Assembly (NCBI GenBank): GCA_958296055.1
Contig: CATQHS010000001.1
Span: 579,808 to 643,807 of the forward strand
Direction of reading: 5' to 3'
Source: an uncultured Acidimicrobiales bacterium
GTDB taxonomy: Bacteria > Actinomycetota > Acidimicrobiia > Acidimicrobiales > Aldehydirespiratoraceae
DNA: 64,000 nucleotides
In this document: one piece after another, positions 2,642 to 56,335 of the stretch
Layout of the letters: each line of letters starts with the position of its first letter
Position numbering within the stretch: the stretch's first letter is position 1
Translations under genes and position numbers: made by a program
The notes under the pieces: generated by a model
The model's input: the letters and a program-made list of their open reading frames with translations, nothing else
The model's database searches: none
Told to the model about the DNA's origin: nothing

Positions 2642-4291
2642 ATGTTCACCGAGAAGGTCGAATGCGTCGAAGAGGGGCTGGCCTGGCTGCTGGAAGCGAC
2701 CCGGTCGGGGGAACTGCCGGTGGGGCGGCTCAAGGACCTAGTCGCGGTCAGCCGGGCGTGGGAGGCCAAGGTGACCGCGTTGCAGACCGACGCGGCTCGG
2801 TTGATCGCGGCCCGGGAGCGCCATGGCGATGGCGGGGCGTCGGTGCTGCGCTACCAGGCCGGGAAATCGAAGTCCCAGGCCCGCCGCAGCCTGGGCGCGG
2901 CGGAGGTCCTCGACGAGATGCCGGGGGTGCGCACCGCGGTCGACGCCGGGGAAGTGTCTTTGGCCAACGCCGAGCGCTTGGCGGATGCGGCCAAGCGCAC
3001 CAACCCTGAGGCGGTGGACTCCGCTTCTGATCTGTTGGCTCAGGCTAAGGAGCTGCCGCCGGATCAGTTCGCCCGCCAGGTCGGGGCCTGGACTCAGCGT
3101 CACCAATCCGATCATGGCCATGACGACTGGCTGCACAAACGCAGACGGCGGTACCTGAAGACTTGGAAGCAACAAGACGGCATGGTGCGCCTCGACGGCC
3201 TACTCGACCCCGAGACCGGCACCCGCATCTGCTCCCGCCTGCAAGACACCGCCGAACAACTGCGCCGCCAAGACCAACACGCAGCCCGCAACGGTGCCGG
3301 CCCGGACGCCGGCTATAGGCCAGCCGCCGACGGGGCGCTGGGCTCCGGCGAAAGACCCGCCATCGCCCAGACCAGCGGCCGTTCAGGCAACGGCGAGGGA
3401 TCCGCGGCTGCTGGCGGCTTCGACCTGGGCGAAGAATCCCGATCCTGGGACCAGCTCCGAGCCGACGCCCTCGACCTGCTCACTTCAGGCGCCGCCGACG
3501 ACGCCAAGGGCCGCGGCGGCTCCGGCGGGCGGCCTAAAGCTGAGGTCATCGTGGTGGCCGACATCGGCGTCCTCACCGGGGAGGACCCCTCAGGGCGCTG
3601 CGAGATACCCGGCACCGGGTCCGTGCCCCCCGCCGTGCTGCAGCGCATCGCCTGCGACGCCCAACTCGCCGGGATCTTGTTCAGCGAAGGCAAGCCGCTT
3701 TACCACGGGGCCAGGGTGCGCACCGCCACCACCAAACAATGGCGGGCCCTCATCGCCCGCGACCGCGGCTGCATCGGCTGCGGCGCCGAACCCAGCCGCT
3801 GCCAAGCCCACCACATCATCCCCTACGCCCAAACCCGCCGCACCGACATCGAAAACCTCGTCCTCGTCTGCTGGCGCTGCCACCACAACATCCACGACCA
3901 CCACTGGCGCATCACCCACCGACAAGGCAAACCCGCTCTCGAGCCGCCTGACCCCCTAGCCCCGCCCGATCCCGCCAACGGCCAACACCCCCACGACGCC
4001 AGGGATGCCCGCCAACCGCGACCAAGCCGCGGCCCGCAGCCAACCAGAACCCGAACCGACCCCAACCCGAACCGCTCTAGATCGGGCCCGGTCAGCGGCC
4101 CCGACCCGCCCCGGCCAACAACACCCGCCTGTTCTACACCTGAACCGCTTCAGATCGGGCCCGGCCAGCGGCCCCGACCCGCCCCGGCCAACAGCACCCG
4201 CCCTGTTCGACACCTGACCGCCGCCCTGTCAGCGGCGGGGATCGACCCGGCCCGACTCCGGCAACCAGCACCCGCCCTGTTCGACACCTGA
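2642..4291 (+). CDS. DUF222 / HNH endonuclease family protein (REP13E12-type), copy 1
   Basis: 549-aa ORF. C-terminal HNH motif CIGCGAEPSRCQAHHIIPY...NLVLVCWRCHHNIHDHHW. The N-terminal helical region is typical of DUF222. The true stop is uncertain because the 3' end lies in a tandem repeat carrying alternative stops. Confidence 0.8.
   Translation: MFTEKVECVEEGLAWLLEATRSGELPVGRLKDLVAVSRAWEAKVTALQTDAARLIAARERHGDGGASVLRYQAGKSKSQARRSLGAAEVLDEMPGVRTAVDAGEVSLANAERLADAAKRTNPEAVDSASDLLAQAKELPPDQFARQVGAWTQRHQSDHGHDDWLHKRRRRYLKTWKQQDGMVRLDGLLDPETGTRICSRLQDTAEQLRRQDQHAARNGAGPDAGYRPAADGALGSGERPAIAQTSGRSGNGEGSAAAGGFDLGEESRSWDQLRADALDLLTSGAADDAKGRGGSGGRPKAEVIVVADIGVLTGEDPSGRCEIPGTGSVPPAVLQRIACDAQLAGILFSEGKPLYHGARVRTATTKQWRALIARDRGCIGCGAEPSRCQAHHIIPYAQTRRTDIENLVLVCWRCHHNIHDHHWRITHRQGKPALEPPDPLAPPDPANGQHPHDARDARQPRPSRGPQPTRTRTDPNPNRSRSGPVSGPDPPRPTTPACSTPEPLQIGPGQRPRPAPANSTRPVRHLTAALSAAGIDPARLRQPAPALFDT
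4069..4290 (+). repeat. 73-74 bp tandem repeat x about 3 at the 3' end of HNH gene 1
   Basis: Copies at 4069-4141 and 4142-4215, with a diverged third copy at 4216-4290. Copies 2 and 3 end in CTGTTCGACACCTGA; copy 1 has the variant CTGTTCTACACCTGA. The hairpin CCGCCGC-N7-GCGGCGG at about 4219-4241 lies inside copy 3. Confidence 0.85.
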
Positions 4292-4418
4292 CCAGGTAAC
4301 CGGGGAAGCAACCGCCAATCCCCGTCACGCCAATGGACCCATCACCGGTTGTTCCACTCTCGGCCTGCGCCCCGGCGAGCCTTCACCGCATCGGCGGTCC
4401 AAGAAACGGCGGGTCCGT

Positions 4419-4844
4419 TTGGGCCGGAGGGCTCTCTTCGGGCACCATGGGGCGATGAGGCCGATGAAGGGGACGGTGGTTATCGCCGAGTACGCCGATT
4501 TCTTCGAGGCCAAGCTGGCCAAGGCCCGCCTGACCGAGGCCGGCTTCGAGTCGGCGGTGCTGTTCGATCCGGCCACCGAGGTGGCCCCCCAACACGTGAC
4601 CCACCGGACGGTGTTCATCGCGGTGGCTGAGACGGCGGCCGAGGAGGCCGCCGCCGTGTTGGCGGAGGTGCCCAAAGACGAGGAGGCCGAGCGCCTCGAC
4701 GCCGCCTTCCACCATCACCGATTCTCGGACCGCCCGGCCTGGATTCGCTACGCCACCTGGGCCCTCGTCATCGCCGTGCCCGGCCCCTTCGCCATCGCCG
4801 GCCTGTGGGTGCTGTGGCGGGTGCTGCAGGGCCTTTTCCCCTGA
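4419..4844 (+). CDS. hypothetical membrane-anchored protein; N-terminal domain resembles DUF2007-type putative signal-transducing proteins
   Basis: 141-aa ORF with one C-terminal TM segment (WALVIAVPGPFAIAGLWVLW). The start is uncertain; alternative ATGs are at 4455 and 4464. Confidence 0.4.
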   Translation: MGRRALFGHHGAMRPMKGTVVIAEYADFFEAKLAKARLTEAGFESAVLFDPATEVAPQHVTHRTVFIAVAETAAEEAAAVLAEVPKDEEAERLDAAFHHHRFSDRPAWIRYATWALVIAVPGPFAIAGLWVLWRVLQGLFP

Positions 4845-4873
4845 TCCCCCCCCCATTCAAAGGACTCGAACCC

Positions 4874-5776: not shown

Positions 5777-5812
5777 CGGGCGAACACTGTCGAATACTGT
5801 GGCCTTCCCGGC

Positions 5813-5888
5813 GCTGGCCGCCTCGCCATGAACGCCGCAGCCCCGCCGACGCTGGCCCCCTCGCCATGAACGCCGCCGCCCCACCAGC
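5813..5888 (+). repeat. 38-bp tandem duplication spanning the helicase start codon
   Basis: Copy 1 is GCTGGCCGCCTCGCCATGAACGCCGCAGCCCCGCCGAC. Copy 2 is GCTGGCCCCCTCGCCATGAACGCCGCCGCCCCACCAGC. The copy-1 ATG (5828) opens a 13-codon ORF whose TGA (5867-5869) overlaps the real ATG at 5866. Confidence 0.9.
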
Positions 5889-8433
5889 GCTGGGCGAGCG
5901 CCTGCCGGGCGGCGGAGATCCCGACGAGCTGCTGGAGGCCTTCGAGCAGTGGGCGGCCGACGCGGGCTTCGAGCTCTACGAGCACCAGCAGGAGGCGGTG
6001 CTGCACCTGCTGGCCGACGACCACGTGGTGCTGGCCACCCCCACCGGGTCGGGCAAGTCGCTGGTGGCGATGGCCGGGATCTTCGCCGCGGTGGCCCGGG
6101 GTCTGAGGGCTGTCTACACCGCGCCGGTCAAGGCGCTGGTGAGCGAGAAGTTCTTCGAGCTGACCGCGGCCTTCGGCGCCGACCGGGTGGGCATGGTCAC
6201 CGGGGACGCCACCGTCAACGGCAACGCCCCGGTGATCGCCTGCACGGCCGAGATCCTGGCCAACCGGACCCTGAGGGCCGGCCCCGTCATCGACGTGGAT
6301 CTGGTGGTGATGGACGAGATCCACTACTACGGCGACCGGGACCGGGGCTGGGCCTGGCAGGTGCCGCTGCTGGAGTTGAACCGGCCCCAGTTCCTGCTCA
6401 TGTCGGCCACCCTGGGCGACACCGCCCGGATGCGGGCCGACCTTCAGGCTCGGACCGGGCGGGACGCCGCCCTGGTGGCGTCGGCCCAGCGGCCGGTGCC
6501 CCTGGACTTCGAGTACCGCGAAACCCCGCTGCACGTGTCGGTCGAGAAGCTGCTGTCCTCGGGAAAGGCGCCGGTCTACATCGTCCATTTCACCCAGAGG
6601 GAGGCCTCGGCCCGGGCCCAGAGCCTGACCAGCCTCAAAGTGCTGACCCCCGACGAGAAGACGGCCGTGCGCGAGGCGGTGGGCCGGTTCCGCTTTGACA
6701 CCCCCGTCGGCAAGGACCTGAGGCGCTTCGTGCTGGCCGGCATCGGCGTCCACCACGCCGGCCTGCTCCCCAAGTACCGGCTGCTGGTGGAGAAGCTGGC
6801 CCAGCAGGGCCTGCTCCGGCTGATATGCGGCACCGACACCCTGGGGGTGGGGGTGAACGTGCCCATCCGCACCGTGCTGTTCACCCAGCTCTTCAAGTAC
6901 GACGGGCGCCGGACTCGGGTGCTGTCGGTGCGGGACTTCCAGCAGATCGCGGGGCGGGCCGGACGCCGGGGCTTCGACGACGCCGGGAGCGTGTGGGTGC
7001 AGGCCCCCGAGCACGTCATCGAGAACAAGCGGGCCGAGGTGAAAGCAGCCGCAGCCGCCGGGGGCGGCAAGCGCCGCAAGCCGGTCCGCAAGAAGCCGCC
7101 CGAGCGGGGCTACGCCCACTACGACGCCGACACCCTGGCCCGGCTGGCGGCCGGGGCGCCCGAAACCCTGGAGTCGAGCTTCCGGGTGACCCACGCCATG
7201 ATGCTCAACGTCTTAGACCGGCCCGGCGACGGCTGTGTGGCCATGAAGCGGCTGCTGGTCGACAACCACGAGCCCCGGCCCCGCCAGCGCAACCACATCC
7301 GCCGGGCGGTGAGCGTGTTCCGGTCGCTGGTGGACGCCGGGATCGTCGAGGTGCTGGACGAGCCCGACGAACTGGGCCGCCCGGTGCGGGTCGGTCTCGA
7401 CCTCCAGGACGAGTTCCGGCTCAACCAGCCCCTGTCGCTGTTCGCGGTGGAGGCGGTGGGGGTGCTCGACCAAGACGCCGCCGACTACCACCTGCAGGTG
7501 CTCAGCCTGGTGGAGTCGATCCTCGAGGACCCGACGGTGGTGCTGATGGCCCAGCTCGACCGGATCAAGGACGAGCTGATGAGCCAGATGAAGGCCGAGG
7601 GCGTGGAGTACGAGGAGCGGATGAGCCGACTGGCCGAGGCGACCTGGCCCCGGCCCGAGGCCGGATTCATCGAGGGGGCCTTCGAGGTGTTCGCCCGCCA
7701 TCACCCCTGGGTGGGGCGGGACCGGCCCGGCCCCAAGTCGGTGGTGCGGGACATGCTCGAATGCGCCGACACCTTCAACCAGTACGTGGCCCGCTACGGC
7801 CTGAAGCGGTCGGAGGGGGTGCTGCTGCGCTACCTGTCGGAGTGCTACCGGACGCTGACCCAAACCGTGCCGCCCGAGGCGGTCACCGGCGAGCTCGAGG
7901 ACATCGCGGCCTGGCTGGGCGCGGTTGTCCGCCACGTCGACTCCAGCCTGCTGGACGAGTGGGAGCGGCTCCGACAACCCGAGGGGCCGGCGGCCGATTC
8001 GCCGTTCCCCGGCGACGGTGACGACGGGGGCGCCGGCGGCGACGGTGACGACGGGGGCGACGCCGACATCACCGCCGACCGGCGGGCCTTCGAGGTGATG
8101 GTCCGCAACGAGATGTTCGGCTGGGTGCAGTTGCTGGCCCGGCGGGCCCACGGCGAGCTGGCCGCCCGGTTGGCCGACTCCGGGGACTGGACTGAAGCCG
8201 ACTTGGACCGGGCCATGGCCCCCTACTGGGCCGAGCACGACGCCATCGGGATCGACGGCGAGGCCCGGTCCCGGCGTTGGGTCGACATCGACGACGGCAC
8301 CGGCCGGGTCGCCCAGAGGCTGCTCGACCCGGCCGGGCACCACGAATGGGCAGTCGAAGCCCGCATCGACCGGGCCGAATCCCGGACCCAGCAGCAGGCA
8401 GTGATGGCGCTGATCGGGATCAACCGCCTCTAG
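5866..8433 (+). CDS. DEAD/DEAH-box (Ski2-like) helicase with long C-terminal domain (DUF3516-type)
   Basis: Walker A ATPTGSGKS, DEIH box (VVMDEIHYYGD), SAT (LMSATLG) and motif VI QIAGRAGRRG. I set the start at ATG 5866 because the track ORF 5' part (5407-5865) overlaps the SDR gene out of frame. Confidence 0.9.
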   Translation: MNAAAPPALGERLPGGGDPDELLEAFEQWAADAGFELYEHQQEAVLHLLADDHVVLATPTGSGKSLVAMAGIFAAVARGLRAVYTAPVKALVSEKFFELTAAFGADRVGMVTGDATVNGNAPVIACTAEILANRTLRAGPVIDVDLVVMDEIHYYGDRDRGWAWQVPLLELNRPQFLLMSATLGDTARMRADLQARTGRDAALVASAQRPVPLDFEYRETPLHVSVEKLLSSGKAPVYIVHFTQREASARAQSLTSLKVLTPDEKTAVREAVGRFRFDTPVGKDLRRFVLAGIGVHHAGLLPKYRLLVEKLAQQGLLRLICGTDTLGVGVNVPIRTVLFTQLFKYDGRRTRVLSVRDFQQIAGRAGRRGFDDAGSVWVQAPEHVIENKRAEVKAAAAAGGGKRRKPVRKKPPERGYAHYDADTLARLAAGAPETLESSFRVTHAMMLNVLDRPGDGCVAMKRLLVDNHEPRPRQRNHIRRAVSVFRSLVDAGIVEVLDEPDELGRPVRVGLDLQDEFRLNQPLSLFAVEAVGVLDQDAADYHLQVLSLVESILEDPTVVLMAQLDRIKDELMSQMKAEGVEYEERMSRLAEATWPRPEAGFIEGAFEVFARHHPWVGRDRPGPKSVVRDMLECADTFNQYVARYGLKRSEGVLLRYLSECYRTLTQTVPPEAVTGELEDIAAWLGAVVRHVDSSLLDEWERLRQPEGPAADSPFPGDGDDGGAGGDGDDGGDADITADRRAFEVMVRNEMFGWVQLLARRAHGELAARLADSGDWTEADLDRAMAPYWAEHDAIGIDGEARSRRWVDIDDGTGRVAQRLLDPAGHHEWAVEARIDRAESRTQQQAVMALIGINRL

Positions 8434-8523
8434 CGCAGGCCCGCCCGCATCACGCGCTAACAACCTCACGCGAACTGACACCTAGCGCGGCCCGACCGCC
8501 TCTAGCGCAGGCCCGCGCCGGCT

Positions 8524-8640: not shown

Positions 8641-9243
8641 TCAGTTCGGCTTGCCATCGTCGGCGTCGGCCGCGGAGCCGTCGGCGGTGTCGGCCGCGGA
8701 GTCGGCGGCGTCGGCACTAGCGGCGTCGTCGGTGCCCGCAGCGTCGTCGGTCGCAGCGTCATCGGCGGCAGCGGCGTCGGTCGCAGCGTCATCGGCGGCA
8801 GCGGCGTCGGTCGCAGCGGTGTCAGTCGCAACGTCGTCGGTTCGGTCCACCGCCCTGCGCACCACATCGGGGACGCGGCCCCCGGTGAGGTCGTCGATCT
8901 TGTCGACCACGGCCTCGGCCACGCCGCCGGCCTTGTCCCAGACCTCGCCCGCCACATCGCCAGCCACATGGGCGGCCCTGCCCGCGGCGTCGCCCGCCTT
9001 GTGGGCGGCCTTGCCCGCCGCGTCGCCGGCTTTGTGGGCCACGTCGCCGGCTTTGTCCCAGACCTCGCTGGCCACGTCTCCGGCCACATTGGCAGCCTTG
9101 CCCGCCACGTCTCCGGCCACATGGGCGGCCTTGCCCGCCACGTCTCCGGCCACATTGGCGGCCTTGCCCGCCTTGTTCCGAGCCTTGCCGGCCAGATCGC
9201 CCACCACGCCCTTGGCCTTGTTGGCGAAATCCGTGTCGCCCAT
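8641..9243 (-). CDS. repeat protein with 11-residue periodicity (LEA/apolipoprotein-like) and acidic D/A/T tail
   Basis: 200-aa ORF. Strong RBS (GGAGAGGAAGAC before the ATG). Repeats GKAANVAGDVA / GKAAHVAGDVA / SEVWDKAGDVA. The segment DKIDDLTGGRVPDVV is reminiscent of small actinobacterial stress/antitoxin-like (MT0933-type) proteins. Confidence 0.65.
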   Translation of the reverse strand: MGDTDFANKAKGVVGDLAGKARNKAGKAANVAGDVAGKAAHVAGDVAGKAANVAGDVASEVWDKAGDVAHKAGDAAGKAAHKAGDAAGRAAHVAGDVAGEVWDKAGGVAEAVVDKIDDLTGGRVPDVVRRAVDRTDDVATDTAATDAAAADDAATDAAAADDAATDDAAGTDDAASADAADSAADTADGSAADADDGKPN

Positions 9244-13693: not shown

Positions 13694-14221
13694 TCAGCCC
13701 AGCCGGCCGTGGAGCAGGGCTACCAGCCGGTGCAGTTCGTCGGCGCAGCGGTCGAAGTCGGCCTGGGCGCCCGCGCCCGGATCGGGCACCTCCTCCCACG
13801 GCTCGGGGCCGACGCCGGCTAGGTCCAGGGCCGCCACCCGCTCTGCCAGCGGCCGGGGCCGGGTCGGGTCGGGTCGGGGCAGGTCTCGGGCCAGCCTCCG
13901 CAGCGACCCGGTAACAGCCGCCGCGGTCGGGAACCGGGACCGGATCCACAAGAGGTGGGCCGGCTCCATGACCGCGATGAGGTCGGCGCCGGCCTCGTCG
14001 GCCGAGAACTGCCGGGACCGGTGGCGGTGGTCGACCAGGCCGTGACGGGCCAGGGCCGTCCGGGTCCTGATCCCCATGGGCTGGCCCTCCACCACATGGG
14101 TGCCGGCGCCCCGCACGACCAGGTCCGGGGCCAGGGCCCTCATTATGGTCGCGGCCATGACCGAGCGAGCCGCGTTGCCAGTACAGACGAAGCACACCAC
14201 CGGCCGGTCACCTTTAGTCAT
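13694..14221 (-). CDS. low-molecular-weight protein-tyrosine phosphatase / ArsC-like
   Basis: P-loop VCFVCTGNAARS (CX5R-S) near the N-terminus. A DP motif (EEVPDPGAG) lies near the C-terminus. Confidence 0.8.
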   Translation of the reverse strand: MTKGDRPVVCFVCTGNAARSVMAATIMRALAPDLVVRGAGTHVVEGQPMGIRTRTALARHGLVDHRHRSRQFSADEAGADLIAVMEPAHLLWIRSRFPTAAAVTGSLRRLARDLPRPDPTRPRPLAERVAALDLAGVGPEPWEEVPDPGAGAQADFDRCADELHRLVALLHGRLG

Positions 14222-16685
14222 CGACGAAGCCGAATTCGCTGTGCCAGGTTGGGGCTTGGTCGGTGAATTGTCCGGTACGGATGCGGGCGATGTCGTAGTC
14301 GGGCAGATCGATCACGGCTGCGCATCTTCGGCCGTCTTTGAATCCGCGGTCGAAGAAGCTGAAATCGAGGTTATCGAATTCGTATTGTCTACGAGATTCA
14401 GGAAGATCTTTGATGTCAACGGGGACGACATGTAAAAAGAAATCGTCACTGATATCATCATTATGGCACGGTTCGATAACGTATATCAAGGTCTTATTAT
14501 CGGCGAGATAGACGTCAAAATAACTGCGAATGATCGGTTGGTGAGAAGCAGTCACCTGATCTACCCGTCGGCTCAAATCAGCATTTGCCGCATAGTCAGG
14601 GCCAAAAAATTCGCCACCCCAGATTCGGCTCCCGCCTACATACTGCCCGGTGCTGATACCGGCGATATCGTAGTCAGGTAAATCGATAATTGCAACATGT
14701 CGTTTGGTGTCCATGACGCGATGCTCAACAAACGTAAACTCGTTGAATTCGTAGCTCTGGCCGATATCAGGTATATCTTCGACATCAACTGGATAAACAT
14801 GCAAAAAGAACGGAGCCAAAATCGGGAGATTAGTTTCAATCCCATCGCAGCGATCTCTGACATAAACTAACTTTCTATCATCGGTGAGGTAGACATCAAA
14901 ATCACCTCGGATTACCGGCCTATTTTCCTCAATAATTTTGTCTATACGCTCCTCATACACGTACCTATCATACAAGAACATCCTCTGATTATCTGGTGTT
15001 AACAAACCCGGCACTACATCCCGCCTAGTCTGAATCATAAAATCAACCTTGTCCAAACCACGATCACAACCACTGACATCCTCATTAAACACAATACCAC
15101 GACCCGATAAATAGTAATGCCACCCATAACGCACCCTGACAAGTTCATAATTCCTCCCCCCACCCGGGATAAGTATATTTTGTCCTCTGGTTAATTTACG
15201 GATAGCACTAAAATCATCTACCACCGTCTTATTAAAGGTAACAGAGAGGTCATCAGGAGGAAGATAGGCACGACCCATTTGATGGCTAGAGGTTATGAAG
15301 ATAAAAAGCGCAATCACGGAACCAAGCGGCATAAGGCGTTCGCTTGACCATTTCCGAATAAGCAACAGGATCAAAGTAAAAAAGAACAGAGGAATACTTA
15401 CATAATATAAGCTCTCATAAAGATGCATCTTACTTTGATGCCTCATTGGTATTGACCAGCAGAATCCGGCAAGAATCGCAGTCGCAGCCAGCAGCCGATA
15501 ACGAACCCAAAACATTCCAATCACACATGTGCCAACCGCTGCGACCGCGATAGCATATTCTTGCGATCTGGTAATCCCTCGTATCCAATTCGCATCTACA
15601 TTCAACAATTGCGAATTCGTAATAGAAATGGTTGGTCCCGGTAAAGCGAAAGGAACCGATAGGCTACCTATTCTCTGGAACTGTTCTTCCAAAAACCAGA
15701 CCCATGGTAGCCTGACCCCCGCCGGGAACCAATGTGTCTTAGGACCCTCTTGACTGAGTTGACTGACTCCAGTGCGTCTCAACATGGAATGAAATGATGG
15801 CAAATCTGATAGGGCTAATTGACGGTTCCCCCTAACGTTCAAGGCGTAATACTCGTTCCCCATATTGTAAGCCAATATTAATAAGCCAAAACCGAAGGCA
15901 ACAATACCCAGCATAAAATAGCGACTGGCAACTACAGCACGAAAGATTTCTCGAATCGTCCTTGTCTTTCTAACTTTGATGATCTCTTTAGCCAGACCAA
16001 GAAAAATGAATACCAATAACAGCGCCAGAACGTGCCAACCCAACAATAAAGCTAGACATGCCTTGATCACCAACTGCCGGAATCGACGTTCCTGAACAAA
16101 GATCACCATACCGTGAAAAGTCAGAGCGAACCCAAAAAGATCCGGCATGGCATCGGTTAGCATCGTGTCATTGTGGAACAAAAATTGTGTAGAGGAGAAT
16201 ACTATAAGGGTTGCCGCCGAAGCGATCCAACGACTGGACGTGAGCCGACATAGAGACAAGTACGCCAAAACCGCGGTACCGACGAAGAATACCAACATCA
16301 ATATTCGGGCCGCATAAATTTGGCTTGACAAGTCATCTCCGAAAGGCAGGGTAACCAGCTTTATCAGCACATAACCACCAGGAGGAAAACGATTATACGC
16401 GAGATAATCGATATTGCCATTCACATCAAATCCCCGACTCATAAACCCAAGAAAATGGTGACTAGGAGAAAGATTCACTGCCACACTCAAATAATGAGAG
16501 GAATACAAATTCGTCCCTGAATCTACTTCCCAAAATTGGCGGTAAAGAACCCGGCGGTCCGTATCATAGATAAACACGGTAGACATCCCGATCAACAACA
16601 TAACCAACGGCAACACTTGACAGGACAAACGCATCCGCGGTCCACGAAGGCGAAGACGAGATTGTCGCATTCGTCCTGAATTCAC
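14214..16685 (-). CDS. low-GC 823-aa membrane protein: GT-C-like polytopic N-domain plus duplicated uncharacterised C-terminal module
   Basis: Single uninterrupted ORF. Hand G+C counts are 27/60 (line 15001) and 18/60 (line 15361), against 40/60 in flanking line 17001. About 10 TM spans. The first-loop segment is DVNGNIDYLAYNRFPPGGY. The GTG at 16685 overlaps the upstream TGA, and the TAA at 14214 lies inside the PTP gene. Confidence 0.75.
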   Translation of the reverse strand: MNSGRMRQSRLRLRGPRMRLSCQVLPLVMLLIGMSTVFIYDTDRRVLYRQFWEVDSGTNLYSSHYLSVAVNLSPSHHFLGFMSRGFDVNGNIDYLAYNRFPPGGYVLIKLVTLPFGDDLSSQIYAARILMLVFFVGTAVLAYLSLCRLTSSRWIASAATLIVFSSTQFLFHNDTMLTDAMPDLFGFALTFHGMVIFVQERRFRQLVIKACLALLLGWHVLALLLVFIFLGLAKEIIKVRKTRTIREIFRAVVASRYFMLGIVAFGFGLLILAYNMGNEYYALNVRGNRQLALSDLPSFHSMLRRTGVSQLSQEGPKTHWFPAGVRLPWVWFLEEQFQRIGSLSVPFALPGPTISITNSQLLNVDANWIRGITRSQEYAIAVAAVGTCVIGMFWVRYRLLAATAILAGFCWSIPMRHQSKMHLYESLYYVSIPLFFFTLILLLIRKWSSERLMPLGSVIALFIFITSSHQMGRAYLPPDDLSVTFNKTVVDDFSAIRKLTRGQNILIPGGGRNYELVRVRYGWHYYLSGRGIVFNEDVSGCDRGLDKVDFMIQTRRDVVPGLLTPDNQRMFLYDRYVYEERIDKIIEENRPVIRGDFDVYLTDDRKLVYVRDRCDGIETNLPILAPFFLHVYPVDVEDIPDIGQSYEFNEFTFVEHRVMDTKRHVAIIDLPDYDIAGISTGQYVGGSRIWGGEFFGPDYAANADLSRRVDQVTASHQPIIRSYFDVYLADNKTLIYVIEPCHNDDISDDFFLHVVPVDIKDLPESRRQYEFDNLDFSFFDRGFKDGRRCAAVIDLPDYDIARIRTGQFTDQAPTWHSEFGFVDD

Positions 16686-26570: not shown

Positions 26571-26630
26571 GCAACCGGGCTGAGCGGCCCGGCTGAGCAG
26601 GCTCGGCGGAGGCGAACGGCGGGGCGAGGG

Positions 26631-36760: not shown

Positions 36761-36861
36761 GAACCCCAACCAGCCAGCCAAGGCAGCCGGCCAGCCAGGA
36801 CGAACCGCCGACCAGCCGGACGGCCGGGACGAACCGCCGACCGGCACCCTAGGCTCGGCCC

Positions 36862-39395: not shown

Positions 39396-40691
39396 ATGGC
39401 CGAACGATCCTGGGGCTTCAGGACCAGGGCCCTGCACGCCGGCGCCCCGCCCGATCCCACCACCGGGGCCCGGGCCCTGCCCATCTACCAGTCGACCAGC
39501 TTCGTGTTCGAGGACGCCGCCGACGCGGCCGACCTGTTCGCCCTCCAGAAGTACGGCACCATCTACACCCGCATCTCCAACCCCACCACCGCCGCCTTCG
39601 AGGAGCGCATGGCCAGCCTGGAGGGCGGCATCGGGGCGGTGGCCACCGCCAGCGGCCAGGCCGCCGAGTTCCTCACCGTCACATCCCTGGCCTCGGCCGG
39701 CGACCACATGGTGGCCTCGGCCGGGCTGTACGGCGGCACCTACACCCAGTTCGACGTGACCCTGCGCCGCCTGGGCATCGACACCACCTTCGTGGAAGGC
39801 GCCGACCCCTGCGCCTTCGCCGCCGCCGTCCGGCCCGAGACCAAACTGCTGTACACCGAGATCATCGCCAACCCGTCGGGGGCGGTGGCCGACGTGGAGG
39901 CCCTGGCCGACGTGGCCCAAGCCCACAAACTCCCCCTGGCCGTGGACTCCACCTTCGCCACCCCTTATTTGTGCCGCCCCCTCGACCACGGCGCCGACAT
40001 CGCCCTGCACTCGGCCACCAAGTTCCTGGGCGGCCACGGCACCTCCATCGCCGGGGTGGTCGTCGAGGCGGGCCGGTTCGACTGGTCCTCGGGCCGGTTC
40101 GGCGACTTCACCGAGCCCATACCGAGCTACAACGGCCTGCGGTGGTGGGGGAACTTCGGCGAGTACGCCTTCTGCACCAAGCTGAGAGCCGAGCAGTTGC
40201 GCGACGTGGGCGCCTGCCTCTCGCCGTTCAACGCCTTTTTGCTCATGCAGGGGCTGGAGACGCTGCCGCTGCGCATGGACGCCCACGTGGCCAACGCCCG
40301 GGCCGCGGCCGAGTGGCTCGACGCCGACCCCAGGGTCTCCTGGGTGAAGTGGGCCGGCCTGGCCGACCACCCCCACCACGATCTGGCCCGCCGCTACCTG
40401 CCCAAGGGGCCGGGCGCCGTCTTCGCCTTCGGGGTCAAAGGCGGCCGGGCGGCCGGGGTCCGCTTCATCGAGTCTCTGCAGCTCATCTCCCATCTGGCCA
40501 ACGTGGGCGACGCCAAGTCGCTGGTCATCCACCCGGCCTCCACCACCCACCAGCAGCTATCCGACGACGAGCTGGCCGCGGCCGGGGTGGGCGAGGACTT
40601 GGTGCGGTTCTCGGTGGGGTTAGAGGACATCGACGACATCCTGTGGGACCTGGACCAAGCCCTAGACGCCGCCGGAGACGGCCGTGGCTGA
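39396..40691 (+). CDS. metY: O-acetylhomoserine aminocarboxypropyltransferase/sulfhydrylase
   Basis: N-terminal pattern FRTRALHAGAPPDPTTGARALPIYQSTSFVF. The PLP-lysine context is HSATKFLGGHG. Confidence 0.9.
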   Translation: MAERSWGFRTRALHAGAPPDPTTGARALPIYQSTSFVFEDAADAADLFALQKYGTIYTRISNPTTAAFEERMASLEGGIGAVATASGQAAEFLTVTSLASAGDHMVASAGLYGGTYTQFDVTLRRLGIDTTFVEGADPCAFAAAVRPETKLLYTEIIANPSGAVADVEALADVAQAHKLPLAVDSTFATPYLCRPLDHGADIALHSATKFLGGHGTSIAGVVVEAGRFDWSSGRFGDFTEPIPSYNGLRWWGNFGEYAFCTKLRAEQLRDVGACLSPFNAFLLMQGLETLPLRMDAHVANARAAAEWLDADPRVSWVKWAGLADHPHHDLARRYLPKGPGAVFAFGVKGGRAAGVRFIESLQLISHLANVGDAKSLVIHPASTTHQQLSDDELAAAGVGEDLVRFSVGLEDIDDILWDLDQALDAAGDGRG

Positions 40692-40744
40692 GCCCGCAAC
40701 CGAGGCCGGGGCCGGGGCCAGGGCCGAAACCCCCGGAGCAGGCC

Positions 40745-41281
40745 GTGGCTGAGCCCGCAACCAGGGACGAACTCCGGCCCGAGGAGGCCGAGGCTGTCGA
40801 GGGGTGGTCGCCGCCCACCGCCCAGCAGCGGCGGGCCATCCTGCGGCGGTCCCAGTCGGTGGCCATGGTGGGGGCGTCGTCGAACCCGGCCCGGGCCAGC
40901 AACTTCGTGGCCACCTACCTGCTGTCGTCGTCCACCGACTACGACGTTTACTTCGTCAACCCCCGGGAGACCGAGATCTACGGCCGGCCGGTGTATGAGT
41001 CGCTGGCGGACCTGCCGACGGCACCCGACATCGTCGACGTGTTCCGCCGGTCCGAGGACCTGCCCGAGGCGGCCGACGCCGCCATCGCCGCCGGGGCCCG
41101 CACCTTCTGGGCCCAGCTCGGCCTGTGGAGCCCCGAGGCCGTCCGCCGGTGCACCGCCGCCGGGGTGGAAGTGGTGATGAACCGCTGCCTCAAGATCGAG
41201 CACGCCCGCTTCGGCGGCGGGCTGAACCTGGCCGGCTTCAACACCGGCGTCATCACCTCCCGGCGTCACTCCCGCATCTGA
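40745..41281 (+). CDS. CoA-binding domain protein (YccU/YneT-like)
   Basis: Family pattern SVAMVGASSNPARASNFVATYLL...VYFVNP...DIVDVFR. The GTG start lies in the second copy of a 22-bp core repeated 61 bp apart. Confidence 0.7.
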   Translation: MAEPATRDELRPEEAEAVEGWSPPTAQQRRAILRRSQSVAMVGASSNPARASNFVATYLLSSSTDYDVYFVNPRETEIYGRPVYESLADLPTAPDIVDVFRRSEDLPEAADAAIAAGARTFWAQLGLWSPEAVRRCTAAGVEVVMNRCLKIEHARFGGGLNLAGFNTGVITSRRHSRI

Positions 41282-45072: not shown

Positions 45073-45274
45073 GCGCCCGACGCTACCGGGCCGCCCGGCC
45101 GCCGGGCTCCGATCAGCGGGCATCACCGGACCGCCCGGCCGCCGGGTCCGAACAGCGGCCGGTCACCAGGCCGCCCGGCCCGGATCATCGGGGGGCCGAT
45201 CGGGCGGCGCTACCCTGCCCCGACGGGCCAGCCGACCCGGCCATTCGGCACCACCGGCGAACGGGAGAAACCAA

Positions 45275-47001: not shown

Positions 47002-47044
47002 GGCGAACAGCGAGAGGTAAGAAACGAGAGGTGGGAAACGAGAG

Positions 47045-48001
47045 GTGAGTGCGGAAGTGACCAAGAACTCGTTCGGCCCGGTGGTGGACGCCCGCTGGCT
47101 GGCCGACAACCTCGGATCGGTGGTGGCGGCCGACGTGCGCTGGTACCTGGACGGCCGCTCGGGCCGAGACGCCTACGACCGGGGTCACCTGCCGGGGGCC
47201 CGCTTCGTGGACCTCGACGCCGACCTGTCGGGACCGCCGACGCCGGCCGGTGGCCGTCATCCCCTGCCCGACCCCGACCGCTTCGCCGAGGCCATGGGCC
47301 GTCTCGGCATTGGCGACGGCGACCGGGTGGTGGCCTACGACGACACCGGCGGGGTGATCGCGGCCCGGCTGTGGTGGATGCTCGACTCGCTGGGGCATCC
47401 GGCCGCCGTGCTCGACGGCGGGATCGGCGCCTGGGCCGGGCCGTTGGAAACAGCCCCGGCGGCCTGGACGGCGGCGGAGTTCACCGCCCGGCCCTGGCCC
47501 GAGGATCGCTTCGTCGGCATCGACGAGCTGGACCGCCTCCGGGGCCAGCCCGACACGGTGATCATCGACGCCCGCTCGGCCGAGCGCTATCGGGGCGACC
47601 CCAACCCCATCGACCCCCGGTTCGGCCACGTCCCCGGCGCGCTGAGCATGCCCGCCGCCGACAACCTGGCCGCCGACGGCCGCCTGCGGTCGGCAGCCGA
47701 GTTGCGGTCCCGCTACGCGGCGATCGGCGCCAAGGCACCAGGCGTCGGGGCCGGGACCGGGGACTCCGGCATTGAGACATCCGGCGTCGGGGACTCCGGC
47801 ATTGAGACGTCCGGGGCCGGGACGTCCGCCGGAACATCCGATGTGGTCGCCTACTGCGGCAGCGGGGTGTCGGCCTGCTGCGACCTGCTGGCCCTGCGCC
47901 GGGCCGGGCTGGCCGACGGGCGGCTGTTCACCGGCTCGTGGTCGGCTTGGGGGTCCGACCCCGACCGGCCCATCGAGACCAGCCCACAGAAACCCGCCTG
48001 A
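47045..48001 (+). CDS. sulfurtransferase (tandem rhodanese; thiosulfate/3-mercaptopyruvate type)
   Basis: Family pattern HLPGARFVDL...HPLP. The active-site loop is YCGSGVSA. A repeat insert (GDSGIETSGV x2) lies just upstream of the catalytic Cys. Confidence 0.8.
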   Translation: MSAEVTKNSFGPVVDARWLADNLGSVVAADVRWYLDGRSGRDAYDRGHLPGARFVDLDADLSGPPTPAGGRHPLPDPDRFAEAMGRLGIGDGDRVVAYDDTGGVIAARLWWMLDSLGHPAAVLDGGIGAWAGPLETAPAAWTAAEFTARPWPEDRFVGIDELDRLRGQPDTVIIDARSAERYRGDPNPIDPRFGHVPGALSMPAADNLAADGRLRSAAELRSRYAAIGAKAPGVGAGTGDSGIETSGVGDSGIETSGAGTSAGTSDVVAYCGSGVSACCDLLALRRAGLADGRLFTGSWSAWGSDPDRPIETSPQKPA

Positions 48002-48084
48002 TGGCCAACCCGCGGGCCCCGGCCGCCAACAACGCCAGCACCCACCCGACCCCCACGAACCCGACCTGATGGCCAACCCGCGGG
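47997..48084 (+). repeat. 68-bp-period duplication of the sulfurtransferase-stop / ppx-start junction
   Basis: CCTGATGGCCAACCCGCGGG occurs at 47997-48016 and 48065-48084. Copy 1 supplies the TGA of the upstream gene, and copy 2 supplies the ATG of ppx. Confidence 0.9.
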
Positions 48085-49754
48085 CGCTGGCCGCCATCGA
48101 TGTGGGCACCAACTCGGTGCATATGGTGGTGGCCCGCCCCGTGCCCGGAGGCCCACCCGATTTCTTGGCCCGGGAGCGGATGCCGGTGCGGCTGGGGTCA
48201 GGCGGCAGCGACATGAAGCGGCTGCAGCCCGACGCCATCGACCGGGCCATCGCCGCCCTCGACGAGTGCCGCCGCATCGCCGAGGCCCACCGGGCCGACG
48301 TGGCCGCGGTGGCCACCAGCGCGGTCCGCGAGGCGGCCAACGCCGCCGACTTCCTGCGGCGGGCCCGCACCGAGGCCGGGGTGAGCGTGGAGGTGGTGTC
48401 AGGGGTGGAGGAGGCCCGCCTAATCCACCTCGGAGCCCTGAGCGCGGCGCCGATAGCGGGCCGCCCCCACCTGGTGATCGACATCGGGGGCGGCTCCACC
48501 GAGGTGATCGTCGGCACCGGCACCGAGCCGACCCTGGCCCGCAGCCTGAAGCTGGGCCACATCCGCCTCACCGACCGGTTCTTCCCCGGCGGGCGCATCG
48601 AGCCGGGAGCGGTGAAGGCCTGCCGCCGCCACATCCAGTCCTTCATCGCCCCGTTCCTGCGGGAGGTGACCAACTTCGAGGTGGCGGTGGGTTGCTCGGG
48701 CACCATCGAGGCTCTGGCCCTCATGGGAGCGGCCCGCCGGGGCGAGCCGCTGCGGACGGTGGCCAACGCCGCCCTCGGCCGCCAAGACCTCGACGCCGTG
48801 GTCGCCGACCTGATCGCCCGCCCCGCCGACCGGGCCGGCCTCCCCGGGCTCGACCCGGGCCGGGCCGAGGTGATCGTGGCCGGCGCCGTCCTGCTCCGCC
48901 AGATGTTCAAGTCCCTGGGCATACGGACCCTCACCGTGTCCACCGGGGCGCTGCGGGAGGGGCTGCTGCTGGACCGGTTCCACCGGCGGGACCGCTCGCC
49001 GGTCCACGGGCTGCACCACCTCAACGACCTGCGGCGCTCCAGCGTGCTGGCCGCGGCCCGCCGCTACGACGAGGACATCGCCCACGCCGGGCACTCCACC
49101 AACCTAGCCCTGGAGCTGTTCGACGAGATCCGGCCCGCCCACGGGCTGGGCGAGCCCGAGCGGGAGGTGCTGGAAGCGGCCGGGCTGCTGCACAACATCG
49201 GGCGGTTCGTGGCCTACGCCGCCCACCACCAGCACTCCTACTACTTGATCCGCCACAGCGAGCAGCTCGCCGGGTTCACCGAAAACGAGCTCGAGCTCAT
49301 CGCCCAGGTGGCCCGCTATCACCGCAAGAGCGCCCCCCGCCAGTCCCATTCGAGCTTCGCGGCGCTCGATGAGGCCGATCAGCACCGGGTCCGGCTGCTG
49401 GCCGGGCTGCTGCGGGTGGGGATCGCCCTAGACCGCACCTACCGGCGGGTGGTGCGCCACGTCAAAGCCGCCGTCGACGACCGGGGCCTGCGGATCGAGG
49501 TTCACACCGCCGCCGACGCCGACGCCGAGCTGGAGTTGTTCACCGCCCGGGACCGTTGCGGCCTGCTGGCCGACGCCCTGAACCTCCCGGTGCGCTTCGA
49601 GGTCAAGACCGGCCGCGAAGCAGGCAAGGCCGCGGCGGCCGAGACGGCGACGACCGCCGCCGCCCAACCCGGAACCGCGGCGGCCGAGATGGCGACGACC
49701 ACCGCCGCCCAACCCCAAGCCGCGGCGGCCACCCTCAGCCGCGGGGCTGGATGA
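48069..49754 (+). CDS. ppx: Ppx/GppA family phosphatase with C-terminal HD domain
   Basis: Family pattern AAIDVGTNSVHMVV...IDIGGGSTE. The HD region reads LLHNIGRFV...HHQHSYYLIRH. I set the start at ATG 48069. The C-terminal Ala/Thr-rich tail is encoded by a 45-51 bp tandem repeat. Confidence 0.85.
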   Translation: MANPRALAAIDVGTNSVHMVVARPVPGGPPDFLARERMPVRLGSGGSDMKRLQPDAIDRAIAALDECRRIAEAHRADVAAVATSAVREAANAADFLRRARTEAGVSVEVVSGVEEARLIHLGALSAAPIAGRPHLVIDIGGGSTEVIVGTGTEPTLARSLKLGHIRLTDRFFPGGRIEPGAVKACRRHIQSFIAPFLREVTNFEVAVGCSGTIEALALMGAARRGEPLRTVANAALGRQDLDAVVADLIARPADRAGLPGLDPGRAEVIVAGAVLLRQMFKSLGIRTLTVSTGALREGLLLDRFHRRDRSPVHGLHHLNDLRRSSVLAAARRYDEDIAHAGHSTNLALELFDEIRPAHGLGEPEREVLEAAGLLHNIGRFVAYAAHHQHSYYLIRHSEQLAGFTENELELIAQVARYHRKSAPRQSHSSFAALDEADQHRVRLLAGLLRVGIALDRTYRRVVRHVKAAVDDRGLRIEVHTAADADAELELFTARDRCGLLADALNLPVRFEVKTGREAGKAAAAETATTAAAQPGTAAAEMATTTAAQPQAAAATLSRGAG

Positions 49755-51893: not shown

Positions 51894-53120
51894 ATGACCT
51901 CCGCCCCAGCCCATCCGTTTCTGCACGCCTTCGCCCCGCCGGCCAAGCCCGAGTCCGACTTCGTGACCATCGTCCGGGGCCGGGGGTCGGTGGTCTACGA
52001 CGACAAGGGCAAGGACTACATCGACGCCCTGGCCAGCCTCTGGTACTGCCAGATCGGCCACGGCAGAGGTGAGATGACCGAGGCGGTCACCGCCCAGATG
52101 GAGCGCCTGGCCGCCTACCAGACCTTCGACCCGTTCACCAACGAGCCCGCAGCCCGGCTGGCGGAGATGGTCAGCGAGCGGTCGCCGCTGCCCGACGGGC
52201 GGGTTTTCTTCGGTTGCTCGGGCTCCGAGGCGGTGGACACCGCCCTGAAGCTGGCCCGCCTGGTGGCCCAGCGCCGGGGCGAGCCGGACCGCCAGGTGGT
52301 GATCAAGCGGACCCACGGCTATCACGGCACCAACTTCGGGGGCACCTCGGCCCAGGGCATCGCCGCCAACCGGGAGGGCTGGGGAGATCTGGTGCCCCAC
52401 TTCCTGGAGGTCCCCAACCGCGACATCGAGGCCATGGCCACCGCCTTCGCCCGCCACGGCGAGCGGGTGGCGGCGGTGATAGCCGAGCCGGTCCAAGGCG
52501 GCGGCGGCATATACCCGCCCCCCGACGGCTACCTGGAGGGGGTGCGCCGGCTCTGCGACCGGCACGGGGCGCTGATGATCCTCGACGAGGTGATCTGCGG
52601 GTTCGGCCGCACCGGGGAGTGGTTCGGGGCCCAGACCTTCGGCGTCACCCCCGACCTGATGACCTTCGCCAAGGGCGTCACCTCCGGCTACCTGCCGCTG
52701 AGCGGAGTCATCGCCTCCCGGCGGGTGTGCGAGGCCATCGAGGAGCCCGGCTTCGTGCTGCGCACCGGCTACACCTACTCGGGCCACCCGACCGCGGCCG
52801 CGGCCGGGATCCGCAACCTCGAGATAATCGCCGACGAGAGCCTGGTGGAGCGGGCCCGCCACGTGGGGCGGGCCCTGGCCGACGGGCTCGACGCCCTGGC
52901 CGCCGACGGGCTGATCGCCTCGCACCGGGGGGCGGGCGCGGTGCGGGGCGCGGTGCTGGAGGGCGACGCCGCCCCGGTGCGGGCCGACATGCTGGCGCGG
53001 GGCGTGATAGTGCGGCCCATCGGCAACGTCTTGGCCCTGTGCCCGCCGCTGGTCATCACCGACGACGAGATCGGCCGGATCATCGACACCATGGCCGACT
53101 CCATCAGAGCCGTCGCCTGA
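51894..53120 (+). CDS. class III (omega) aminotransferase
   Basis: Motifs FGCSGSEAVDTALKLAR and LILDEVICGFGRTGEWFG. Confidence 0.8.
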   Translation: MTSAPAHPFLHAFAPPAKPESDFVTIVRGRGSVVYDDKGKDYIDALASLWYCQIGHGRGEMTEAVTAQMERLAAYQTFDPFTNEPAARLAEMVSERSPLPDGRVFFGCSGSEAVDTALKLARLVAQRRGEPDRQVVIKRTHGYHGTNFGGTSAQGIAANREGWGDLVPHFLEVPNRDIEAMATAFARHGERVAAVIAEPVQGGGGIYPPPDGYLEGVRRLCDRHGALMILDEVICGFGRTGEWFGAQTFGVTPDLMTFAKGVTSGYLPLSGVIASRRVCEAIEEPGFVLRTGYTYSGHPTAAAAGIRNLEIIADESLVERARHVGRALADGLDALAADGLIASHRGAGAVRGAVLEGDAAPVRADMLARGVIVRPIGNVLALCPPLVITDDEIGRIIDTMADSIRAVA

Positions 53121-53175
53121 CCGGCTGTCGCTCTGACCGGCTGTCTCCTGGCGATCGATCCGACGGTTCGGGGGA

Positions 53176-55505: not shown

Positions 55506-55640
55506 GGCGGGGCCTCCTTCTTTCGGGAGGGGCTCGCGACGGAGTTTCGGCCGAGAGTCTACGGGCCGCCGGCGGCAGGCCGCGGGCGCAGGAGGCGCAG
55601 CGCCCTCGGGTCCGCGCCGCCAACCTACGATGGGCCCGCG

Positions 55641-56285
55641 ATGGGGTCGAGTCCAGCCGTTGCCGGGTGGTGGAGGTGGGCCGGGCTGGCCGCGGCGGTG
55701 GCGGCTGCGGGCGCGGCCGGCGGGGCCTGCAGCATCGAGTCGGTCATCGGCGTCGAGCCGGTGGCCGACCCGGCCGCCGCGGTAGCGGCCAGAACCGAGA
55801 CCGCAGCCCCGACCACCGCGCCCCCCGACGACAGCAACGACGACAGCGACGGCGACGGTGACGAGGAGATCAGCCCCTTGGACATCTCGGGCGAGATCAT
55901 CAGCCAGTACGACTTGGTCTCCGGCGAATGCTTCAACCAGGTCGACAACATCAGAGCCGGTCGCAAGGTGACGATCACCTCGCGCCTGGACTGCGACCAG
56001 CCCCACTGGGCCGAGGTGTTCCACACCTTTGAGGTGGACGCCCCCCATCCGGCCATCTACCCGGGCGACAGAGCCATGGAGGACCTGGCCCGGCGGGGAT
56101 GCTACGAGCGGTTCGAAAGCTTCGTGGGCCAGATCTACGAGCTGTCGGAGTTCCGGATCGGCGTCTTCATCCCCAGCCGCAGCAACTTCGAGCATCCCGA
56201 GGCCCGCTACCGGAGAATTCACTGCTGGCTGTACCGCGGCTTAGAGGAGACGATCGAGGGATCGGTCCGGGGACTGGGGATCTGA
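55641..56285 (+). CDS. secreted lipoprotein, septum-formation-family-like domain
   Basis: Signal/lipobox-like AAGAAGGAC. The pattern GECFNQ...LDCDQPHWAEVFH matches the Cys-x...C..PH..EV pattern of that family. Confidence 0.45.
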   Translation: MGSSPAVAGWWRWAGLAAAVAAAGAAGGACSIESVIGVEPVADPAAAVAARTETAAPTTAPPDDSNDDSDGDGDEEISPLDISGEIISQYDLVSGECFNQVDNIRAGRKVTITSRLDCDQPHWAEVFHTFEVDAPHPAIYPGDRAMEDLARRGCYERFESFVGQIYELSEFRIGVFIPSRSNFEHPEARYRRIHCWLYRGLEETIEGSVRGLGI

Positions 56286-56335
56286 CCGGGGGGATCTGAC
56301 CGGGGGGATCTGACCGGGGGGATCTGACCGGGGGG
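56274..56335 (+). repeat. 14-bp tandem repeat x4 (GGGGGGATCTGACC) starting at the stop codon
   Basis: Copies at 56274-56287 (variant), 56288-56301, 56302-56315 and 56316-56329, followed by a terminal G6. The first copy contains the TGA at 56283-56285. Confidence 0.9.

Follow-up and report, generated by a model that had tools for sequence, protein, structure and literature searches.

Gene content of the window and its tandem arrays

We analysed 64,000 nucleotides of contig CATQHS010000001.1 (positions 579,808 to 643,807), hereafter called the window, from an uncultured Acidimicrobiales bacterium, and in particular the short tandem duplications that lie at the starts and stops of many of its genes. 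The G+C content of the window is about 70%, and its nearest relatives are uncultured Acidimicrobiia. The metY protein is 84–86% identical to those of 'Candidatus Aldehydirespirator' and other Acidimicrobiia metagenome-assembled genomes (MAGs), and the window genes match the PANK22 metagenome scaffolds at 91–94% nucleotide identity. Exact protein look-ups with OppB and ppx turned up no other strain of this species, and a metagenome scan based on ppx gave only relatives of at most 55% identity, without synteny. Related loci used for comparison are labelled L001 to L098, and they amounted to 1.9 Mb in the searches with repeat units. Genes were called using a codon model for which the window itself served as the training sequence. 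The gene names proposed in an earlier note, which was made from the sequence alone, agree with the Pfam assignments, i.e., DUF222-HNH, DEAD/DUF3516 helicase, Opp-type ABC transporter, PemK/MazF, cyclase, PfkB kinase, metY-type pyridoxal phosphate enzyme, CoA-binding protein, MaoC, rhodanese, Ppx/GppA and Septum_form. The window OppB, as called here, matched no protein on record, and Rfam and tRNA scans across the window gave no match.

The earlier note had listed 13 loci at which the unit of a tandem duplication contains a start or stop codon. All 13 repeats were found at, or a few bases from, the positions listed there. The repeats are real at every one of these loci, but the link to a gene end is weaker than had been claimed at two of them. 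The stop context of the first HNH gene is weak because the tail of this open reading frame (ORF) has no coding signal in any frame after about position 3900 and its three TGAs stand in three frames. At 38636–38676 the unit is in frame with a 43-codon ORF, and there is no support for that ORF as a gene or for use of its ATG. Six junction arrays can be added to the earlier list (53112–53150, 27383–27421, 47011–47049, 58011–58044, 59260–59316 and 36784–36842), and all of these features are collected in Table 1.

Abundance and placement of the arrays

Tandem Repeats Finder (TRF) was run with a period of at least 10 and a score of at least 50, and arrays were merged. The window gave 39 merged arrays in its 64 kb, while 20 triplet-shuffled copies of it gave a mean of 1.95. 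A called start or stop has an array within 30 nt in 21 cases, where 6.9 would be expected, and none of 20,000 permutations reached 21. The earlier note had asked for a genome-wide enrichment test; run here with TRF and permutation on the 64-kb window, it gives an excess near starts and stops. Arrays make up 16.6% of the intergenic sequence and 3.0% of the coding sequence, a 5.5-fold higher density in intergenic DNA. The statement that much of the intergenic DNA is made of duplicated junctions was, however, too strong, since the share is about one sixth by TRF and somewhat more when diverged copies are counted. A called terminus codon lies wholly within a TRF array in 7 cases (3.9 expected, p = 0.09). 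This enrichment is weak because of the TRF boundaries and the uncertain start calls; diverged two-copy cases (8423/8495, 40680/40741 and 47997/48065) escape TRF.

Arrays inside genes differ from those touching intergenic DNA in their periods, which are divisible by 3 in 19 of 21 and 6 of 18 arrays, respectively, and 9 of the 21 intragenic arrays lie within the terminal 10% of the gene (p = 0.027). Among members of one genus (the window, L088, L089, L091, L093, L095, L096 and L098), the density of arrays varies about four-fold (0.61 per kb in the window, 0.78 in L089, 0.19 in L088 and 0.23 in L091), which suggests that lineages differ in duplication rate, in tolerance or in the efficiency of selection. 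The median for the other high-GC loci is about 0.14–0.19 per kb.

Repeat units and ghost gene ends

Each locus has a unit of its own size, between 11 and 74 bp. No window unit recurs elsewhere in the 64-kb window, and in the 1.9 Mb of related loci the units match only the orthologous site. The units carry recognisable copies of the adjoining gene ends, which we call ghosts. The cyclase N-terminus, GTG AGC TTC AGC CC (VSFSPA), occurs three times and the OppB N-terminus, VTG(L/F/S)V, four times. At ppx, the resemblance of the ghost N-terminus to the real one is significant (z = 5.9), and in the metY spacer a decayed copy of the metY C-terminus is weakly recognisable (z = 2.0). Around the stop/start of metY and of ppx, a core of 21–30 nt is nearly identical between the copies and the rest is diverged. 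The core would be constrained in both copies, because the last codons of the upstream gene double as the ribosome site of the downstream gene (GGAG before the CoA-binding GTG).

Direct repeats of 2–8 nt were seen by eye at unit borders; the septum array, for example, has GGGG, the helicase start has GCGCTGG[CG]C and the array at 53112 has GTC. The perfect multi-copy arrays at 56276–56335 and 62199–62284 look recently expanded.

The same junctions in related loci

The comparison of orthologous junctions, which the earlier note had put forward as a check, revealed single-copy overlaps or tight spacers in relatives at metY/CoA-binding, OppB/OppC and ribokinase. The metY and CoA-binding genes overlap by 8 nt (ATGGCTGA or GTGGCTGA) in L001, L004, L007, L034, L011, L012 and L091, and by ATGA in more distant actinobacteria. 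The window carries GTGGCTGA twice, 61 bp apart; metY stops at the TGA of the first copy, and the CoA-binding gene starts at the GTG of the second. Other relatives have duplications of their own at this junction, i.e., L088 (70 bp), L089 (two mini-ORFs), L008 (about 130 bp), L002, L017, L028, L058 and L036/L069, and a 6-bp GGCTGA duplication is present in L005, L006, L009 and L010. The spacing of the two genes is an overlap or, where they are separated, 53–190 nt.

Two further arrays at the metY/CoA-binding junction have a different look, although that of L003 also counts among the independent duplications. In L003 (11360–11660), about four 72-bp palindrome-bearing units are read through by a 103-codon ORF, and in L042 (11297–11520), an Amycolatopsis MAG, two units of about 87 bp each end in GCCGCATGA and resemble mycobacterial interspersed repetitive units (MIRUs). 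Both look like true repeat elements.

At rhodanese/ppx, TGATG occurs twice in the window, 68 bp apart, and four times in L089 (56, 56, 56), while L091 has ATGA three times (50, 62) and L088 has TGATG followed by ATGA. The OppB/OppC junction is a GTGA overlap in L098, carries in-frame 36-nt copies in the window and L093, and holds two 35-nt mini-ORFs in L096; the spacing is an overlap versus 66–68 nt. The ribokinase and nucleoside hydrolase genes of relatives are joined by TAG, GCTCGGCCC and GTG with a 9-nt gap. L007 has TAGGCCCGCC twice before the ancestral TAGGCTCGGCCC, which makes three TAG units, and L009 and L004 have two. In the window this gap is 401 nt; the old junction is kept as a ghost directly before the hydrolase GTG, and the kinase stop now lies about 400 bp upstream. 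The MaoC spacer measures 36 nt in L088, 109 in L091, 199 in L089 and 202 in the window. The septum and 53112 arrays are specific to the window and are single-copy in L089 and L091.

Copy-number polymorphism, another check named in the earlier note, was seen within species in the relatives only. The OppB protein of L093 is the same as that of L095, and an alignment of 3.1 kb of their DNA shows 97.5% identity, and yet their OppA/OppB spacers differ, with 141 nt and 2 mini-ORFs in L093 versus 222 nt and 5 mini-ORFs in L095. L093 also has a private 17-bp duplication that holds the TAG of a neighbouring gene. The ENA and Logan assemblies are identical base for base over the arrays in the pairs L089/L090, L091/L092 and L093/L094. 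The independent duplications at the same junctions differ in length and in spacer. As a whole, the comparisons show that the duplication process is recurrent and ongoing and that it pulls overlapping gene pairs apart.

Reading frame of the ghost starts

At several junctions the new spacer is bridged by a relay of mini-ORFs. In a relay the upstream stop overlaps the start of a mini-ORF, the mini-ORF stop overlaps the next start, and so on through to the real gene; the overlaps at both ends of the mini-ORFs are −4, −1 or −8. The window has relays at OppA/OppB (four mini-ORFs), cyclase (three), helicase, ppx, metY and SPFH, and relays bridge almost all separated metY/CoA-binding and rhodanese/ppx junctions of the relatives. 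Spacer shuffling, as a control for this bridging, keeps the length and hence the frame, and was not used as a test of the frame rule described below.

A start that overlaps a stop is common at tight junctions. When such a junction is duplicated, the ghost start of the upstream copy reads into the next copy, whose stop it meets in frame only at one value of the period modulo 3. The periods in the window that belong to the relay class are 38 at helicase, 35, 47 and 35 at cyclase, 68 at ppx, and 23, 35, 35 and 35 at OppA/OppB. The period of 61 at metY is the value that an 8-nt overlap needs for a relay. The periods of 36 and 36 at OppB/OppC are the in-frame alternative, an N-terminal OppC extension for which the GTG that overlaps the OppB stop can serve as the start.

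In the window and in all high-GC loci, each called start that has an overlapping stop was searched for similar upstream copies. At threshold 6, the first period fell in the relay frame in 15 cases, in the third frame in 1 and in frame in 1 (p = 4.5e-6 against one third), so that relay versus third frame alone was 15:1. At threshold 7 the counts were 12/2/1, and one third-frame call is a skipped intermediate copy. In a looser test that does not require similarity, the relay frame accounted for 31 of 65 (p = 0.011). The scan for similar copies replaced a strict one (18-nt core, at most 3 mismatches, gene test based on G+C at third codon positions), which gave 3–5 cases and missed known ones. We read the frame rule as the probable trace of selection against duplications that would send ribosomes over the real start in the wrong frame.

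Table 1. Tandem arrays, repeats and mini-ORFs at gene ends in the window.
Feature	Position	Strand	Repeat or mini-ORF	Codons and context
HNH tail	4065–4291	+	73/74-bp unit x3 in tail of DUF222-HNH ORF 2642–4291	copies each end ...TTC[GT]ACACCTGA, encoding ...LFDT or LFYT plus stop in different frames; TGAs 4141, 4215 and 4289, only 4289 closing the ORF
Helicase start	5808–5893	+	38-bp unit x2.3 holding the start (ATGA)	ghost ATG 5828 opens 13-codon mini-ORF to TGA 5867–5869, overlapping real ATG 5866
Helicase stop	8424–8516	+	identical 21–22-bp core CCGCCTCTAGCGCAGGCCCGC x2, 72 bp apart	TAG 8431–8433 within first core copy; flanks between cores without significant likeness
OppB TGA / OppC GTG (GTGA)	22821–22918	-	36-bp unit x2.7
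OppA/OppB	23895–24025	-	relay of four GTGA-coupled mini-ORFs (8, 12, 12 and 12 codons)	from OppA TGA 24022–24024 to OppB GTG 23897
MazF/PemK stop	26564–26611	+	13-bp unit GGCTGAGC... x3.6	TGA 26568–26570 in first copy
SDR stop	27383–27421	-	18-bp unit x2.1, CTGAGC motif	just downstream of TGA of SDR gene 27434–28366
SPFH	29732–29824	-	31-codon mini-ORF	ATG overlaps TGA of gene 29821–30381 (ATGA); TGA overlaps SPFH-gene GTG 29732
Cyclase start	30405–30541	+	three GTGA-coupled mini-ORFs (12, 16 and 12 codons)	ending at cyclase GTG 30522
Ribokinase stop	36456–36487	+	TTTGA x2, then 11-bp GATCTAGACCC x2.2 (100% identity)	on and after TGA 36458–36460
Nucleoside-hydrolase start	36784–36864	+	29-bp unit x2, then retained ancestral junction TAGGCTCGGCCC-GTG	ghost TAG 36850–36852; GTG 36862
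Small ORF	38636–38676	-	15-bp unit x2.7	ATGA on minus strand
metY/CoA-binding	40672–40762	+	core CCGGAG..GGCCGTGGCTGAGCCCGCAACC x2, 61 bp apart	metY TGA 40689–40691; CoA-binding GTG 40745; 22-codon mini-ORF from GTG 40684 to TGA 40750
MaoC	45085–45195	-	about 40-bp unit x2.4–3 in divergent MaoC / cation-efflux spacer	units carry CCGGTGA-like ghosts of MaoC start region
Rhodanese start	47011–47049	+	14-bp unit CGAGAGGT[AG]AGAAA x2.8, Shine-Dalgarno-like	just upstream of start
Rhodanese TGA / ppx ATG (TGATG)	47997–48096	+	68-bp unit x1.5	22-codon mini-ORF from ATG 48001 to TGA 48067, which overlaps real ATG 48069
Aminotransferase stop	53112–53150	+	16-bp unit x2.5	holds TGA of gene 51894–53120
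Septum_form stop	56276–56335	+	14-bp unit GGGGATCTGACCGG x4.3 (100% identity)	TGA in first copy
Spacer	58011–58044	-	17-bp unit x2, CCCCTAACA on minus strand	between stop of 58056–59246 and start of 57666–58001
Spacer	59260–59316	-	30-bp unit x1.9	fills gap between genes 59322–62294 and 58056–59246

Other features of the window

Coding regions carry repeats as well. A 200-aa ORF at 8641–9243 (-) consists almost entirely of in-frame repeats with periods of 15, 30, 33 and 120 bp and has no Pfam match; its product looks repetitive and is probably a disordered or surface protein. An in-frame 15-bp unit (SSDTP repeats) occurs 4.9 times at 62199–62284 (-), right after the start of a 990-aa gene, and a 42-bp unit occurs in frame three times at 57006–57130 (+), near the C-terminus of a DUF5317 gene. 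The latter two coding arrays are perfect or near-perfect and stand at protein ends.

The two DUF222-HNH endonuclease genes of the window (2642–4291 and 32772–34154, both +) resemble mobile HNH genes of the 13E12 type known from mycobacteria. The second has the cyclase gene on one side and the VanA_C gene on the other, two genes that are direct neighbours in L098, and in L093 a DUF222 gene lies 560 bp from the cyclase gene. A low-GC island (48% versus about 71%) at 14214–16685 (-) contains an 823-aa ORF that matched nothing in Pfam or PADLOC, and PADLOC gave nothing for its neighbours either. The island is flanked by a low-molecular-weight phosphatase gene and by CoA-transferase genes, at a site with no gene in L098 and with other large unannotated ORFs in L096, and its origin is probably foreign. 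An N6/N4 DNA methylase and an RNA ligase with a PHA02142-type OB fold are encoded in the segment 41383–43408 (+), which lies between the CoA-binding gene and an M24 peptidase gene. The ligase is missing in L089, and the segment is a variable insert, possibly derived from a phage.

Discussion

We propose that short tandem duplications (10–150 bp) arise often in this lineage. Their likely cause would be slipped-strand misalignment between short G+C-rich direct repeats, which we infer because direct repeats of 2–8 nt stand at unit borders and because perfect multi-copy arrays are present. The arrays would then gain and lose copies in the manner of minisatellites. Most duplications would be removed by selection, and within genes only in-frame ones would stay, mainly near the protein ends. 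Across a gene boundary a duplication would do no harm, with the first copy serving as the upstream stop and the last copy as the downstream ribosome site and start, so that surplus copies could persist as ghost gene ends and turn into spacer DNA, and overlapping or abutting gene pairs would thereby be separated.

A second filter may apply where a start overlaps a stop within the unit (ATGA, GTGA, TGATG or RTGNNTGA). At the lengths that persist, the ghost start opens a short ORF whose stop is the very one that overlaps the next start, which produces a relay of coupled mini-ORFs. In a rarer outcome the ghost start is in frame with the downstream gene and adds an N-terminal extension, and lengths that would carry ribosomes over the real start in the wrong frame are nearly absent. 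As a likely consequence, coupling by termination-reinitiation may be kept across the new spacer. We consider it probable, with a chance of roughly three in four, that the arrays are slippage duplications filtered by selection that keeps both genes and the translational hand-over intact. The pattern is one of mutation and selection, and neither a machine nor a new molecular system.

This proposal agrees with two suggestions of the earlier note. A duplication-prone process whose products survive at gene ends is supported by the intergenic density, the in-frame intragenic arrays, the window-specific arrays and the copy-number difference between L093 and L095. The separation of overlapping pairs is supported by the 8-nt metY/CoA-binding and the GTGA OppB/OppC overlaps of relatives, which are separated in the window.

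Several points weigh against the proposal. The frame test comprises 15–17 loci from one window and about 100 loci, some of which share ancestry, and the starts were set by our own gene caller, which under-detects the in-frame class. Translation of the mini-ORFs and their coupling are presumed from sequence. Several two-copy cases pair an identical core with an unrelated middle (the helicase TAG and, in part, metY), and a single clean tandem duplication with uniform divergence therefore fails there. Core constraint does not explain the helicase TAG repeat either, where an identical 22-bp core and an unrelated middle occur with no downstream co-directional gene. The OppA/OppB array has no demonstrable origin in an overlap, since L098 has an ordinary 72-nt spacer there, and many co-directional junctions of these loci have ordinary spacers and no relay.

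The earlier note knew of no described mechanism. No junction-duplication route was indeed found in the searchable literature, but precedents do exist in the MIRUs and in the exact tandem repeats (ETR) and variable number tandem repeats (VNTR) of mycobacteria, minisatellites of the sort by which tuberculosis strains are typed. MIRUs (Supply et al. 1997, as described in PMC3184786 and PMC12548453) are intergenic tandem units of 40–100 bp whose small ORFs overlap the flanking gene termini, and their insertion sites are described as start codons, with −4 coupling (PMC12548453). The window arrays resemble them in having tandem units of tens of bp between genes of the same operon in a high-GC actinobacterial host, with units of 35–74 bp at OppA/OppB, OppB/OppC, rhodanese/ppx and metY/CoA-binding, small ORFs that overlap the flanking stop and start codons, and a variable copy number (2 mini-ORFs in L093 versus 5 in L095; four TGATG in L089 versus two in the window). 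The classic MIRU sizes of 53, 77 and 101 bp also fit the unit length of 2 modulo 3 for −4 junctions. However, MIRUs form one dispersed family of about 40 loci that is thought to be mobile, while each array of the window has its own unit made from local gene ends, and a single dispersed family was not found in the window and 1.9 Mb of related loci. In addition, the host of the window belongs to the Acidimicrobiia, the units are as short as 11–16 bp, and there are stop-only cases.

At rnc-fpg1 (ETR-F/VNTR3239) of the M. tuberculosis complex, nested locus-specific repeats of 279–358 bp end at the fpg1 start, and other mycobacteria have 1–6 bp there (PMC2734929). Here too, locus-specific and strain-polymorphic repeats that run up to the downstream start codon expand a junction that is tight in related species. 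That report (PMC2734929) describes neither the units as copies of a stop/start junction nor a rule of reading frame. The pattern in the window further differs in that it is found at many junctions within 64 kb and has recurred independently at the same junction in many genomes. The window arrays appear to fit the description of locus-specific minisatellites and to fall outside a family of the MIRU kind. As for repetitive extragenic palindromic (REP) sequences and miniature inverted-repeat transposable elements (MITEs), no dispersal was found in the window and the 1.9 Mb of related loci, and there was no Rfam match in the window.

Slipped-strand tandem duplication between short direct repeats is part of general bacterial mutagenesis. 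The window arrays share with it the short units, the border repeats of 2–8 nt and the perfect multi-copy arrays, but this general mechanism is silent on where its products survive, to which the terminal location and the frame rule are added here. In synthetic biology, the 'refactoring' of phage genes duplicates an overlap so that neither of the two genes has to share its bases with the other; this is done by design, whereas the present case would be a natural and recurrent evolutionary route. Units as copies of stops and starts, independent hits on the same junction, and a rule of persistence modulo 3 were not found described in the searchable literature. What is added to the known actinobacterial minisatellites is the frame rule and direct evidence for the 'de-overlapping' of genes.

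If MIRU- or MITE-like mobile elements inserted at overlapping stops and starts and duplicated their target (ATGA etc.), the repeats would be insertions. This would suit the two units of L042 ending in GCCGCATGA between metY and the CoA-binding gene, the 300-bp palindrome-bearing array of L003, which is flanked by GTGACTGA and ATGACTGA, and three window loci with an A-X-A shape, i.e., an identical core around an unrelated middle. For MIRUs, too, insertion at start codons with −4 coupling (PMC12548453) and tetranucleotide direct repeats (PMC3184786) have been described. Empty and filled sites do exist, and ATGA or GTGA is repeated at them, but the filling is built from local gene ends and therefore points to duplication over insertion. 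The confinement of every unit to its orthologous site within the window and the 1.9 Mb of related loci, the presence in the units of ghosts that can be traced to the N- or C-terminus of the gene next to them, and unit sizes of 11–74 bp that change from locus to locus also make mobile elements quite improbable as the source. Chance low-complexity matches in DNA of 70% G+C, or assembly artefacts, are very improbable. High-GC DNA does give many weak TRF rows, and a perfect short array (14 bp x4.3) can be mis-sized by assemblers, but shuffled windows yield about 2 arrays against the 39 observed, the copies carry substitutions, and independently assembled relatives have arrays at the same junctions with ENA and Logan assemblies in agreement.

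The arrays might instead be adaptive tuning knobs, in which the copy number of relays, ribosome sites or promoters is selected to set downstream expression and varies between strains on that account. Closely related strains differ in copy number (L093 versus L095), the frame rule shows these sequences to be visible to selection, and the length of the rnc-fpg repeat region of M. tuberculosis correlated with the fpg1 mRNA level (PMC2734929). Purifying selection that removes harmful lengths predicts, however, the same frame rule by itself, the stop-only arrays (MazF, septum, 53112 and ribokinase) face no downstream co-directional gene, and the mini-ORF peptides are not conserved between relatives, so that we regard adaptive tuning as improbable. 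Slippage duplication under purifying selection can also be extended to a wider statement. Junction duplication may be a general and recurrent opening of tight or overlapping operon junctions in high-GC Actinobacteria, with the frame rule keeping termination-reinitiation relays, MIRU-like families as descendants or mimics, and copy number as a heritable and reversible dial on downstream translation; taken jointly, these claims are tentative and we think them doubtful.

The frame rule provides indirect evidence that ribosomes start at ghost starts and that selection acts on where they stop, and one logic may link locus-specific minisatellites with elements of the MIRU type. In practice, gene callers will set starts inconsistently within such arrays, which calls for caution in annotation, and the junction arrays are likely to be strain-typing markers for uncultured Acidimicrobiia. 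Papers on the dynamics of gene overlap in the searchable literature name no such mechanism of separation, and junction duplication would offer a concrete and testable route by which overlapping or abutting bacterial genes are separated and intergenic DNA is born.

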